Source of the DNA: a phage
Reading direction: 5' to 3' (one strand)
Sequence record: PZ445518.1
DNA: 51,269 nucleotides
Shown: positions 41,445 through 50,692 of the stretch, one piece after another
How the letters are laid out: each line of letters starts with the position of its first letter
Numbering within the stretch: position 1 is the first letter of the stretch
Program-made: the position numbers and the translations under genes
The notes under the pieces: generated by a model
The model's database searches: none
The model's input: the letters and a program-made list of their open reading frames with translations, nothing else
Told to the model about the DNA's origin: nothing

Positions 41445-41979
41445 CGGTTAGCACCAGGATTGTGATCGAAATAATCAAAAGTAATCATTCGTAATCAAAT
41501 CACGTCAAAATGATGATTGCATTTGCAAATTTGATGAGAAAAGTAATCACGTTTAATCATTGGTTGCAGGGGAGATAGTGAAACCTTCCCCTCTTGCCTC
41601 ACTTTCCCGCCTGGCTGTCAGTGGTTGTTATGTTCCGTTCCCGCCTGTTCTTTTGTTGACCTTCCGCAAAATACGATAACAAAAAATAACAAACAATACC
41701 TATATAATACATTGAAAAATAAGGATTATTTATTTATATGTATCTATATATTATCTTTTGTTATCTTGGTTATTGTGGTATTTGGTGGGGGTATATAGTT
41801 TTTGTGTATCTATATGTGTGTATGGGTATGTAGGGGCATATATATCTATATGGCACTTTCCGCGAGAAAACTTCGATAACAGCCAATGATAACATTGATT
41901 TATAAGGAAAAATAACGCCAATATTGTTATTGTGCCACCATATAAAATTGATAAAACACGCGGGAACAAGAAAAAACAG
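41445..41979. promoter_or_regulatory. AT-rich divergent control region B (candidate operator/origin region)
   Basis: About 535 bp without ORFs; GTAATCA x3, palindrome ATTTGCAAAT, TTCCCGCCTG x2, TATGT/GTATCTATAT word repeats, GGGAACAAGAAAAA box. Confidence 0.5.
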
Positions 41980-42008
41980 TTGACACATTAAATAGCATTA
42001 TTGATAAT
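41980..42008 (+). promoter_or_regulatory. sigma70-type promoter for rightward early operon
   Basis: TTGACA, 17-nt spacer, GATAAT; about 30 nt upstream of ATG 42038. Confidence 0.6.
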
Positions 42009-42037
42009 GCCGACACCTAACAACCAGGAGGTAGAAA

Positions 42038-42502
42038 ATGAGCGAGCAATCATTAACTGACACGCTGCGCCGTGCAGCTATTATGCTGGCTAATGGCGAG
42101 GAAGAGGCGATCAAGATTCCTGACGCGTATTTGCAGGTCCACATGTTCGGCAAGAAGTCGGCAAGCAATCCGGCGGCCTACATTCGCCAGATCATGAGTC
42201 GAGTTCCAGAAGTCGCCGAGCGGGGGCGCGTATCCGTTACCCGTGGAGTTTACGGGCCGGAAGATGAAAACTTCGGTAGCACTTTCTACGAGGTGCGCAT
42301 TGTTGAAGGACGTCGCAAGGTTTACAACAAAGAGGCACTGGAAAGGGCAGTACGCCAGGCTAAGCGCAAGGTTGCAGAGGCGATCATTGATATGTCACCA
42401 AACCTAGCAAACTATGCGCCGGAAGAGTATGAAACATTATCAAAGGCCGTCGCTGACTTTCACGCGATGATCAAAAAAACTTTCCTGGAGGATGAGCAAT
42501 GA
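42038..42502 (+). CDS. hypothetical protein (first rightward early gene)
   Basis: AGGAGG RBS; downstream of TTGACA-N17-GATAAT promoter. Confidence 0.5.
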   Translation: MSEQSLTDTLRRAAIMLANGEEEAIKIPDAYLQVHMFGKKSASNPAAYIRQIMSRVPEVAERGRVSVTRGVYGPEDENFGSTFYEVRIVEGRRKVYNKEALERAVRQAKRKVAEAIIDMSPNLANYAPEEYETLSKAVADFHAMIKKTFLEDEQ

Positions 42503-42771
42503 AAAAGGCGTTAATCGGTGTTTTGGTGGCAATGGCATTCCTGACCGGATGTAAAGAAGATGGCGCGCATGTTGGCAATGTGCAGATGGCTAACCCTGGC
42601 GATGACTACAACGTAAGGGAGCTATTCACCGCTGACGGATGCACTGTTTACCGATTCTATGACGATCGCACTGTTTACTTCACCAACTGCAAGGGAACTA
42701 CTAGCTGGGAAGTGTCGAAAAGCAATGGCAAAGGCACGAAGACAGAACATATGACCGTCGAGACAAAATAG
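42499..42771 (+). CDS. lipoprotein (second putative exclusion-type lipoprotein)
   Basis: Signal peptide with lipobox LTGC (MKKALIGVLVAMAFLTGC); stop TAG inside conserved element. Confidence 0.6.
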   Translation: MKKALIGVLVAMAFLTGCKEDGAHVGNVQMANPGDDYNVRELFTADGCTVYRFYDDRTVYFTNCKGTTSWEVSKSNGKGTKTEHMTVETK

Positions 42772-42811
42772 CACTTTTTGTTAAAACTCAAAAACGATAA
42801 CCAGGCATAAT
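42766..42811 (+). promoter_or_regulatory. conserved-element promoter cassette (-10 CATAAT) driving structured leader
   Basis: AAATAGCACTTTTTGTTAAAAC (contains stop TAG of lipoprotein gene), 19 nt, CATAAT. Confidence 0.55.
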
Positions 42812-43013
42812 ACACACATAGACGGGCGGCAAGGATTGCTGCGGGAGAGGAGCGACGCAGGGGCTTGATCGAAGTGTCAGGATTCCCAACCGTGAGGCCA
42901 GAACTATCACACTCGCCACCAGGCAGAACGCTAGATAGGTCACTGAACTGAGGCTACCGACGAAGTGAAGCCCGTCACCAAAGATTAAACGGTTATTTAT
43001 GTGAAAGGGGTTA
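42812..43013 (+). ncRNA. GC-rich structured leader / candidate small RNA
   Basis: About 200 nt without convincing ORF; downstream of promoter cassette; 7-bp closing stem GACGGGC (42821-42827) with GCCCGTC (42970-42976). Confidence 0.3.
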
Positions 43014-43196
43014 ATGATGGATAAGATCATCAAAATGAGCGAAGTCAAGCCGGGAATGATGGTTAAATTTGCTGGCAAATATCGCCTAGTGCTGGATAAC
43101 TGCCGCAAAGAGAACATTCTTACAATTCGTGTAAATGGCAAGGCGCAGCTATTCGCCCCTAACGCAGATATTGACGTTGAAGTTAGAATTAAGTAA
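43014..43196 (+). CDS. hypothetical protein
   Basis: 60-aa ORF after long structured leader; RBS AAAGGGG. Confidence 0.45.
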   Translation: MMDKIIKMSEVKPGMMVKFAGKYRLVLDNCRKENILTIRVNGKAQLFAPNADIDVEVRIK

Positions 43197-43211: not shown

Positions 43212-44336
43212 ATGTTAAAACTTGCTGACATTAAATTCCCGATCACCTTCGAATCTCGCGGCATTGGTCATTACATTTTTACTGATGAAAAAACATGCCA
43301 TAAGGTTAATATGAATAGCGACAAACTAAGCCCATCAACAATGGAGATTGAACACTTTATTGATGCGCACAATACGCAGTACAACGCACTTAAAGACTAT
43401 GGCTATGCAATGCCAGGCTACACATGTTTGCACTACAAGCCATATAAAGGCCAGGTGTTGCCAGTAAAAGAGAACAAGCAATTCCTGCTGGATAGCGAGG
43501 AGATTGTATACCCGATCACCTTTGAAACGGCAGGAAATAGCGTTGTGACTTTCACATCTCGCGACAACGGCACATATGGAAACGGCTTGAGAACAAGTTA
43601 TAATGTTGATTACTTCGTCGCCTGTCATAACATGGCTAATCCTAACAACGATAAGAACAAGGTGTACTACGTGCGCGATATTGAAAGGCAGTGGCCTAAG
43701 AAAGACTCCCAGGCAGAGATTCCGATGGTTCATATGAAAACCTGCGACTACAAAAAGCTGTGGTGCTTAAGTCTGGACAATATCAAGTATCCGATCACGT
43801 TCCGCACGACTGGTAAGTCAACGATTCGCTACACATCGCGCGAAAATGGCGTTTATAGCGATGGTACGAAATCAGGGTTGAAAGTTGATTTCTTTGTCAA
43901 CGGTCACAATAGATACAATCCGCACAACGAAGAGGATAAAGTGTACTACGTGGAAGACATTACAAAACACTTATTTGGAGAAACTCCATTCGGCGGCGGT
44001 AAGACGTCAATTCAAAAAATCATTGGCGATGAGATCCACAAAGCGGCTGCCGAAATGAAAGCTCCTGGAGGCTGGCGTATTGACAAGAGCGCATTTGCAA
44101 ATCAAGAAATCGTAACGCAGGGCGCAATTGAAGATATGCCAGTTGCAGCCACTCTAAAAGGAGTCCGGCTTGATGACGGCACCTGGTATGAAGTAACGGC
44201 TACACCAAAGACGATCGAGATTCATGATGACGTTGTTATCCTTCTGCTTCACTACGGCGGCTATAAAAACCGGACGATTGCAGGTGAGATCAGCATTAAG
44301 CGCGGAACGATGATTAAGTGGAAGGTGAAGATTTGA
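43212..44336 (+). CDS. protein with three tandem ~95-aa repeats (unknown function)
   Basis: Repeat units begin IKFPITFESRG / IVYPITFETAG / IKYPITFRTTG and each ends with a ..DKVYYV(R/E)DI-type block. Confidence 0.6.
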   Translation: MLKLADIKFPITFESRGIGHYIFTDEKTCHKVNMNSDKLSPSTMEIEHFIDAHNTQYNALKDYGYAMPGYTCLHYKPYKGQVLPVKENKQFLLDSEEIVYPITFETAGNSVVTFTSRDNGTYGNGLRTSYNVDYFVACHNMANPNNDKNKVYYVRDIERQWPKKDSQAEIPMVHMKTCDYKKLWCLSLDNIKYPITFRTTGKSTIRYTSRENGVYSDGTKSGLKVDFFVNGHNRYNPHNEEDKVYYVEDITKHLFGETPFGGGKTSIQKIIGDEIHKAAAEMKAPGGWRIDKSAFANQEIVTQGAIEDMPVAATLKGVRLDDGTWYEVTATPKTIEIHDDVVILLLHYGGYKNRTIAGEISIKRGTMIKWKVKI

Positions 44337-44412
44337 GTTTGCTCACTGCGGCGCACGTCGCCGCATGGATCGGATTGTTTTCCTACCTGTTTAGCTTTTA
44401 TTGAGGTGAGAG

Positions 44413-50664: not shown

Positions 50665-50692
50665 AAATTACCCGCCGCACGGCGGGTTTTTT
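50663..50692 (+). terminator. rho-independent terminator before terS
   Basis: ACCCGCCG cac GGCGGGT followed by TTTTTTATT. Confidence 0.7.

Follow-up and report, generated by a model that had tools for sequence, protein, structure and literature searches.

The 51,269-nucleotide (nt) stretch of phage DNA analysed here (PZ445518.1; hereafter the window) is Shigella phage JK16 (MK962751; Drexlerviridae, Tempevirinae, Warwickvirus; T1-like) at 100% identity, and it encodes, in the gap between a DUF4884 lipoprotein open reading frame (ORF; 42499-42771) and a 60-amino-acid (aa) ORF (ORF60; 43014-43196, + strand), an RNA of ~155 nt that forms a new RNA family, a class absent from Rfam. The whole RNA domain occupies 42818-42980 on the + strand (~155 nt from one strand of its closing stem, P1, to the other, plus a 3-nt 5' lead and an ACCA tail); upstream lies a promoter-type cassette (42771-42811, + strand) and downstream a C/A-rich, G-poor linker (42981-43013, + strand) that includes the Shine-Dalgarno region of ORF60. 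A preliminary description of this DNA had proposed a GC-rich structured leader or small RNA at this place. Its landmarks, a -10-like CATAAT at 42806-42811, a 7-bp closing stem (GACGGGC at 42821-42827, complementary to GCCCGTC at 42970-42976, with 142 nt enclosed) and the ATG of a 60-aa ORF at 43014, are all present, and the segment is GC-richer than the neighbouring DNA, as stated there (G+C 0.59 versus about 0.30-0.47). Apart from a TTG-started 28-aa ORF on the + strand and a 158-aa antisense ORF, neither of them conserved, the gap has no ORF of 20 aa or more.

Folding the JK16 sequence by itself yielded a minimum free energy of -51.7 kcal/mol, against -54.5 +/- 4.3 kcal/mol for dinucleotide shuffles (z = +0.65), so that the lone sequence gives no statistical support for structure and its folding energy is unusable as evidence. 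The structure is visible because of comparison with relatives, a methodological reminder that relatives can reveal what single-sequence folding misses. BLASTN with the intergenic segment showed that a core at 42844-42895, extendable to ~42807-42965, is conserved even in phages with which JK16 has no further DNA in common. The folding proposed in the preliminary description found no signal above shuffles in the single sequence and strong support in the comparative fold, and its central idea of a structured non-coding leader or small RNA is backed by covariation and by conservation across unrelated phages.

Covariation and fold of the leader RNA

We counted base pairs for a nine-helix model in a structural alignment of 26 distinct sequences (A4). 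Standard pairs fill 94.1% of 1251 cells, compared with 33-39% after the 3' partners are slid by 1-3 columns, and double-sided changes occur in 26 of the 51 pairs, counts that lean towards the model in that the registers of P1, P2 and P7 were picked by complementarity. The covariation score of 0.474, against <=0.074 in the slid controls, was reached by 0 of 500 column shuffles. The register bias is offset because RNAalifold, run on a plain MAFFT alignment, independently gives P3, P4, P5/P5b and P8 and adds a two-pair helix, P1b, and because compensation in P1 and P7 is visible in the raw sequences. Covariation thus excludes chance; the closing stem and eight further helices are kept by compensatory changes in at least five lineages, and we are close to certain that this is a real, selected RNA structure. 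A covariance model of the RNA (R1) has a single match in the window, at 42820-42979 (143 bits, E = 2.7e-44). Among the pattern-fetched loci, which the R1 searches covered, weak matches also occur on the opposite strand ~0.85 kb from the element in two Dhillonvirus contigs (L043 6932-7070, +, 15.1 bits, E 0.03; L037 12036-12174, -, 10.9 bits, E 0.7); they are probably chance matches inside coding sequence.

The pattern of change bears on whether the locus is an RNA element at all, rather than a DNA-level signal (an origin, a single-strand initiation site or a recombination linker), a small ORF lacking annotation or a stem that arose by chance. Such explanations can draw on the position of the element within ~1 kb of primase or helicase genes in several lineages, on ORFs annotated across it in some records and on its single-sequence folding energy, which is no better than chance. 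But no reading frame is open in all lineages, every frame being broken in at least one, and variable columns are distributed over the three codon phases as 21, 19 and 19, with no 3-base periodicity, in agreement with the earlier statement that the segment holds no convincing ORF. Variation is concentrated in paired positions (62 of 96 paired columns against 34 of 77 unpaired ones). Invariant (G42863-U42884) or frequent G-U pairs would turn into C.A mismatches if the other strand were read, which makes the + strand the functional one, and the -10 box at a fixed distance argues for a transcript. The replication-gene link, which we had considered as a sign of a replication origin, fails in JK16 and at loci L027, L038 and L045. 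With chance excluded by covariation, we regard a non-RNA explanation as extremely improbable.

The fold predicted from the alignment is built of two nested three-way junctions, (P1, P2, P1b) and (P3, P4-5, P6-8), with nine helices, all on the + strand. P1 (42821-27 with 42970-76) has double-sided changes in 7 of 8 columns and takes the forms GACGGGC/GCCCGTC, GGGCGGCG/CGCCGCCC, GTCGAC/GTCGAC, GACGGGTG/CACCTGTC and AGGCAG/CTGCCT, with an outer G-C pair in 24 of the 26 sequences. The P2 hairpin (42828-32 with 42836-40; GGCAA-GGA-UUGCU) joins a covarying stem, in which GC/UA/CG and CG/GC/AU pair types occur, to an invariant GGA loop, which suggests a tertiary contact of the loop because GGA stays constant while its stem changes. 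P1b (G42841 and C42842 with 42965-66), the helix found by RNAalifold on the unfitted alignment, is represented by AU (10), GC (10), GU (2) and UA (1) pairs; after its 5' strand, the J2/3 strand, running up to 42848, supplies the invariant GGAGA of an internal loop. P3 (42849-53, GGAGC, with 42953-58, GCUaCC, A42956 being bulged) is paired in 100% of cells, its middle pair being A-U in 13 sequences and G-C in 13.

Within the second junction, P4 (42855-57 with 42891-93) encloses P5 and P5b and shows no variation, hence is uninformative. P5 (42860-63 with 42884-87) contains the invariant G42863-U42884 pair, and P5b (42864-69 with 42876-81; loop CGAAGU) changes from U-A to G-U, from C-G to U-A and from U-G to C-G or U-A. 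Together these helices make up the most conserved block (42855-42893; 92% identity between JK16 and Dhillonvirus), which is followed by an invariant AAC. The second arm (P6-P8; 42896-42949), holds the invariant CACU and GAGAACGC. P6 (42899-901 with 42943-45, plus 42896-97 with 42948-49) varies as CAG/CUG, CGA/UCG and AUA/UAU. In P7 (42904-09 with 42932 and 42934-38), 6 of 7 pairs show double-sided changes; the raw sequences read CTATC/GATAG, CGCAC/GTGCG, CATTGG/CCAATG, CATAAC/GTTATG, CATGAT/ATCATG and CCAGGT/ACCTGG, the helix has changed independently inside Dhillonvirus alone (CCAGGT/ACCTGG, CCTGGT/ACCAGG, CCCGGT/ACCGGG), and the extra pair A42909-U42932 alternates between A-U and C-G. P8 (42912-13 and 42915-17 with 42922-26) varies as GCC/GGC, CCG/CGG, CCC/GGG and CUC/GAG, and its loop, ACCA in JK16, is of the GNRA type in most relatives. 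On the 3' side, the P3 strand, a GACGAAG whose columns are invariant in the 26 sequences and the P1b strand span 42953-42966, and the P1 strand with ACCA spans 42970-42980, ACC(A/U) lying 0-2 nt past P1 in most lineages.

About 65 nt are invariant, mostly in junctions and internal loops, and in aligned representatives they form the blocks GGAGAGGRGYRACGCWGGGG, GAUCGWAGURUCWGRAUUCCYAACCGUGA, CACU, GAGAACGC and AGGCYAYCGACGARG. So many invariant junction nucleotides are unlike RNA thermometers and tell against the thermosensor that the preliminary description had entertained. The internal loop between P1b and P3, where GGAGA invariably faces GACGAA, is a possible kink-turn (k-turn): P3 ends at C42958-G42849, a bulge of G42959, A42960 and C42961 follows, and G42962 and A42963 lie opposite G42847 and A42848, all of them invariant, with an irregular non-canonical (NC) side that has 3-4 extra nt before P1b. 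Resemblances to a T-loop and to a sarcin-ricin loop proved, by eye, to be out of register. A sponge for CsrA, considered on account of the GGA motifs, was also set aside, as only the GGAs of the P2 loop and of J2/3 are constant; the third is lost in L059 by a compensatory change and is thus constrained by pairing.

Rfam 15 (4227 models, including riboswitches, ribozymes, EAR, C4, pRNA, Y-RNA-like RNAs and 6S) gave no matches in the window at gathering thresholds, and at E <= 10 no match falls on the element, whether in JK16 or in six further lineages; the covariance-model scan envisaged in the preliminary description was thus run, and no family matched. ARAGORN finds no tRNA or tmRNA genes in the window, as expected from the earlier remark that the segment does not look like a tRNA. 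Complex conserved RNA folds of this size are usually ribozymes, riboswitches or RNA-protein machines, and new ones are rare in E. coli phages. Among phage RNAs, the phi29 packaging RNA (pRNA) is a 120-170-nt structured RNA from an early promoter whose sequence drifts while its structure is kept, a free-standing gene product of Bacillus podoviruses that serves the packaging motor. The JK16 RNA resembles it in being phage-encoded, structured and of a size within that range; unlike pRNA, it goes without a match to the Rfam pRNA model and belongs to phages that use ordinary terminases. The core sequence was not found in the literature searched, and the Dhillonvirus and Drexlerviridae RNA literature was likewise without a relevant report. 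A bulk survey of viral structured RNAs by conservation and covariation in IMG/VR contigs yielded ~10,000 unnamed candidates (Fremin et al. 2023, PMC10690425). The text of that paper contains no description of the element, which may be among the unnamed candidates because IMG/VR holds at least 20 copies of it; the survey gives no function in either case.

Distribution, promoter and gene context

Altogether, 172 INPHARED records carry the core at 73-100% identity, including ~21 Warwickvirus records (>=95% identity to JK16), ~135 Dhillonvirus records (90-95% over the 52-nt core) and ~16 records of 38-44-kb phages (PT1/Jilinvirus, Lumpael/Murrayvirus, Arya, IME279, MQ-4, BUCT618 and Bas97; 80-90%); further carriers are PHB17 (Changchunvirus), 'Pseudomonas' phage Motto and two uncultured 50-kb contigs. 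Pattern scans added ~20 IMG/VR contigs and 10 metagenome contigs. Matches to the pattern GAGAACGC..GGCNACCGACGA were nearly all due to chance in GC-rich coding DNA, L059 being the sole new locus, and three matches in GTDB and 6 of 16 in metagenomes were discarded as chance, with no R1 match. None of 5,426 complete E. coli genomes, of 72,556 plasmids or of the GTDB genomes, taken at one per species, contains the element, and no homologue was found in T1, one Webervirus, one Rogunavirus or the early region of HK022. We conclude that the RNA module is exchanged among otherwise unrelated virulent enterobacterial siphophages. Well over 100 sequenced coliphages carry it, including members of the BASEL collection (for example, Bas97) and Dhillonvirus, which makes it testable in standard laboratory systems.

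Each genome holds one copy, and no second copy in the style of putL and putR was found. The RNA is near-universal in Dhillonvirus, given ~135 carriers against 149 records with a full-length helicase-primase gene. One record, PQ843332.1 (Escherichia phage P-GXEC-L2P5, 88.6 kb), has three matches to the element and two to the Dhillonvirus helicase-primase, and appears to join two Dhillonvirus genomes in one concatenated or chimeric assembly. In phages closely related to JK16, namely tuinn (L003 1300-1345), SECphi27 (L073 1375-1410) and many more in which only the first 63 nt match, a 7-bp hairpin, GGGCGGC-loop-GUCGCCC, with a C/A-rich tail takes the place of the RNA and ORF60 and directly precedes a homologue of the 374-aa gene that follows ORF60 in JK16. 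This plain hairpin resembles the P1 stem of a PT1-type RNA, as if the interior had been deleted, and its occurrence at the same spot indicates that the RNA interior is dispensable in Warwickvirus, where a 5'-terminal stem has nevertheless been retained.

A -10-like hexamer (CATAAT, TATTAT, TAATAT or TATAGT) precedes the first P1 pair by 7-10 nt in all lineages; the Dhillonvirus promoter reads TTGACT-N17-TAATAT and lies behind a T-rich stretch. From this spacing, transcription would start 1-3 nt before the structure, in JK16 at about A42818, and the RNA is likely to lie no more than 1-3 nt from the 5' terminus of a transcript synthesised by the host sigma-70 RNA polymerase. JK16 has no RNA polymerase gene of its own. 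Its cassette combines the 17-mer GCACTTTTTGTTAAAAC at 42771-42787 with the CATAAT at 42806-42811. The 17-mer occurs 15 times in the window at <=3 mismatches, versus 0.34 expected (6190, 9944, 20722, 28246, 30735, 31806, 35045, 37207, 38199, 40116, 41421, 42771, 44565, 46015 and 48650), always oriented with the local genes, and several copies are followed ~18-22 nt later by CATAAT or TATAAT, the spacer often containing a GC-rich hairpin. The repeat looks like a phage-specific promoter or regulatory cassette. XY3, SECphi27 and their relatives (L002 1210-1675; L073 880-1335) have two extra 61-aa ORFs upstream together with a second copy of the cassette, which points to cassette-wise gain and loss in the early region. 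Farther upstream in the window, an AT-rich divergent intergenic region at 41600-42010 (G+C 0.30-0.33) contains a near-consensus sigma-70 promoter, TTGACA-N17-GATAAT, at 41980-42008, so that upstream read-through may provide a second route to transcription of the RNA.

On its 3' side the RNA is always followed by a Shine-Dalgarno sequence and co-directional genes. The intervening linker measures 10-45 nt in all lineages and often begins with ACC(A/U) and, loosely, (A/U)UUAAC; there is no intrinsic terminator between RNA and first ORF in any lineage. We considered (A/U)UUAAC after P1 as a boxA/nut-like motif and rejected that reading, since the GCUC part of boxA is absent and the motif is missing in several lineages. 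In PT1, Bas97 and MQ-4 (L005 1660-1700; L094 2640-2690; L004 1675-1700) an extra strong GC hairpin stands between RNA and first start codon (GCCCC..GGGGC / CACCAG..CUGGUG, and GCCCCGG-UACG-CCGGGGC), and the first ORF of PT1 and Bas97 is a membrane peptide of 28-32 aa.

The genes behind the RNA differ from lineage to lineage. In JK16 the first is ORF60 (phrog_8121), a real gene family with homologues of 80-86% identity in ~143 Klebsiella Webervirus phages, where it stands behind an ordinary 72-nt spacer without the RNA, which rules out RNA and ORF60 as an obligate pair; the Roth72 record labels its homologue 'anti-RM protein stp1', an unverified annotation. First ORFs elsewhere belong to phrog_2684, 4344, 3127, 35278, 34680 and 24586, or encode a lipoprotein, a 32-aa membrane peptide or EaA-like proteins, so that at least eight PHROGs of unknown function are represented and homology of the downstream genes across lineages could be dismissed. 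The preliminary description had tied the leader to a triplicated-repeat protein gene, a connection that finds no support on the same grounds. That gene is the 374-aa ORF at 43212-44336, whose matches to phrog_7116 in three stretches confirm the internal triplication, and relatives have a 297-aa version of it.

This gene context weighs on the reading of the RNA as a sensor, that is, a riboswitch or protein-binding operator through which a small molecule or a host or phage factor would set translation, Rho-dependent termination or decay of its own messenger RNA (mRNA). The architecture is aptamer-like, with covarying helices round invariant junctions, a GNRA loop and a candidate k-turn; the RNA occupies a 5' untranslated region (UTR); and the C/A-rich, G-poor tail past P1 could serve as a rut or standby site. 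Among riboswitches, the k-turn-containing SAM-I, lysine and c-di-GMP-II classes likewise combine a 5' UTR position, a multi-helix junction with invariant nucleotides and a GNRA loop, to which the candidate k-turn in our alignment, CC|GAC|GA opposite GA|GG, would add a further likeness. Unlike them, the JK16-type RNA has no expression platform: the spacer between P1 and the Shine-Dalgarno sequence is variable in its length as well as its sequence, with no conserved anti-Shine-Dalgarno pairing and no terminator, and a switch between P1 and an extended P2, possible in JK16, Motto and PT1, is absent from Dhillonvirus. The downstream genes lack a common function and form no coherent regulon, bacterial genomes never contain the class, an unusual trait in a metabolite sensor, and no Rfam riboswitch matches even at E <= 10. 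We therefore judge a sensor unlikely, and the riboswitch named in the preliminary description is disfavoured by the same lack of a platform, of a coherent gene set and of bacterial occurrence. Aca proteins, which bind 5' UTR motifs in phage early operons, offer a precedent for the operator form of the idea (PMC13551039).

Indifference to the genes behind it would also suit a self-cleaving ribozyme of a new class, trimming the leader to leave the downstream mRNA, or the RNA itself, with a 5'-OH or cyclic-phosphate end that alters stability. Association with arbitrary phage genes is typical of bacterial self-cleaving ribozymes, and an invariant core inside covarying helices, together with the size, is compatible with one. 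But no known family matches, there is no evident cleavage site and nothing in the RNA is specific to catalysis, and we hold a ribozyme to be very unlikely.

Intrinsic terminators lie within some of the arrays that the RNA precedes. In Dhillonvirus a terminator of seven GC pairs (GGCCCGC...GCGGGCC) with a U run lies 540-700 nt downstream; no more than ~20 nt behind it come the Shine-Dalgarno sequence and the start codon (ATG) of the next gene, ahead of recombination genes; because the next gene starts so close behind it, all transcripts of the recombination genes must pass this terminator. L027 has a similar arrangement, but there the cassette sits as a moron inside the tail module. In PT1 and Bas97 the unit is flanked by terminators, and a late activator gene follows after a 390-nt gap, and in L038 and L045 a unit of 0.5-0.65 kb ends at a bidirectional terminator facing convergent tail-fibre-like genes. 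JK16 itself has no strong terminator for 7.7 kb downstream of the RNA. Intra-operon terminators are abundant in T1-type genomes; the record of T1, which lacks the RNA (NC_005833; L097/L098), annotates ~17 rho-independent terminators 10-25 nt before the next co-directional gene.

Possible action in cis or in trans

By kind, the element belongs with promoter-proximal structured phage leader RNAs, and most of the probability falls on mechanisms that have precedents. We think it somewhat better than an even chance, at a probability of roughly 0.55, that the RNA acts in cis on the expression of its own transcript. The RNA domain would fold on leaving the polymerase and work as a promoter-proximal cis module on a conserved host machine. 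We infer that its partner is something conserved in Enterobacterales, the likeliest target being the transcribing RNA polymerase itself. A polymerase bound in this way would become resistant to pausing and termination and read through intrinsic terminators within the downstream gene arrays, and the P1 closing stem might additionally shield the 5' end of the mRNA. As to mechanism, processive antitermination on the host RNA polymerase, in the manner of the put sites of phage HK022, which resemble one another in sequence and suppress downstream terminators in cis through the zinc-binding domain of the polymerase beta' subunit, to which their RNA binds, is a tentative proposal made by analogy.

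Antitermination is favoured by the predicted position of the RNA at +1 to +3 irrespective of downstream genes, by the terminator-then-gene layout in Dhillonvirus, a genus that nearly always keeps the RNA, and by the dispensability of the RNA in the genus of JK16, where no strong terminator follows for 7.7 kb. The EAR (eps-associated RNA) of Bacillus, a structured RNA of ~120 nt, is thought to act on the elongating polymerase and is comparable in size and complexity; unlike the JK16-type RNA, which stands at the 5' end, it lies inside an operon and comes from another phylum, and the EAR model has no match at E <= 10. In HK022, putL begins about three nucleotides into an early transcript and needs no protein factors to act, and put RNA is ~74 nt long, with two stem-loops arranged in a V and a triplex (PMC9378689). 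The JK16 RNA, taking the predicted start, is placed like put directly past a host-polymerase promoter and is independent of the following genes; in both cases the host RNA polymerase is used and terminators lie inside downstream gene arrays.

Several points weigh against this mechanism. The positional analogy with put is the sole link to function. Size and architecture differ, ~155 nt with nine predicted helices and two three-way junctions against ~74 nt, and there is no homology in sequence or structure, R1 finding nothing in the HK022 early region (<=7.8 bits with filters off). The JK16-type RNA occurs once per genome in virulent phages, whereas lambdoid HK022 has one put site per early operon. 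Read-through would be harmful in L038 and L045, because their bidirectional terminator faces convergent genes; the cassette of L027 sits as a moron in a tail module; and in Warwickvirus a plain hairpin replaces the RNA interior with the downstream genes unchanged. Finally, a constant RNA before variable genes fits equally well with the RNA itself being the product.

In that alternative, a stable species of ~160 nt would be cut from the leader, extending from the transcription start, or close to it, to a point just past P1, and would act in trans; it might, for instance, be a decoy or sponge for a conserved host protein or for an anti-phage defence, with the genes behind it merely sharing its promoter. 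Besides the constancy of the RNA, its accessory behaviour in Warwickvirus is in keeping with this, as are the moron-like cassettes of promoter, RNA, small ORFs and terminator in L027, L038 and L045 and its confinement to virulent phages, given its absence from the E. coli, plasmid and GTDB genomes searched. The near-invariant outer G-C pair of P1 followed by ACC(A/U) recalls the ends of tRNA and 4.5S RNA that RNase P recognises, a resemblance we treat as a lead only. Maturation from the leader of its own operon has a precedent in the CI RNA of phage P4, which, like the C4 RNAs of P1 and P7, is a leader-derived, RNase P-processed antisense regulator of ~77-80 nt with known target sites. The JK16 RNA shares with them its origin in an untranslated phage leader, and its terminal stem and RCC-type tail would suit RNase P; unlike C4, it shows no match to the Rfam C4 model, and no complementary target was found for it. 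Further evidence against a free product is that no lineage has a terminator or a defined 3'-end signal after the RNA, an ORF always following 10-45 nt later, that no target is known, and that neither ARAGORN nor Rfam shows anything tRNA-, tmRNA-, C4- or Y-RNA-like. On balance we consider an RNA product acting in trans rather unlikely.

A role without precedent is likewise possible, though doubtful. With similar reserve we raise the prospect that the RNA is the founding member of a new phage RNA class whose folded body is the selected product: either a protein-free reprogrammer of E. coli RNA polymerase unrelated to put, or an abundant early decoy whose tRNA-like G-C/ACCA terminus serves to neutralise a conserved host factor or an anti-phage defence. 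If either of these held, the RNA would be a mobile promoter-linked module swapped by virulent enterobacterial phages across family boundaries. Should the favoured cis-acting RNA indeed modify RNA polymerase, it would rank as just the second type of phage antiterminator that works free of protein and would address how T1-like phages and Dhillonvirus read through many intra-operon terminators; should it act in trans, it would represent a new type of RNA-based host takeover or counter-defence.

Two further hairpins stand downstream in the JK16 window. TGCGGCG-cacgt-CGCCGCA at 44346-44364, directly after the 374-aa ORF, has no T run next to it and may either stabilise the 3' end of an mRNA or terminate weakly. 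Just ahead of the terminase genes, at 50670-50687, the small-ORF region is closed by a strong bidirectional intrinsic terminator, ACCCGCCGCACGGCGGGT with a T run.

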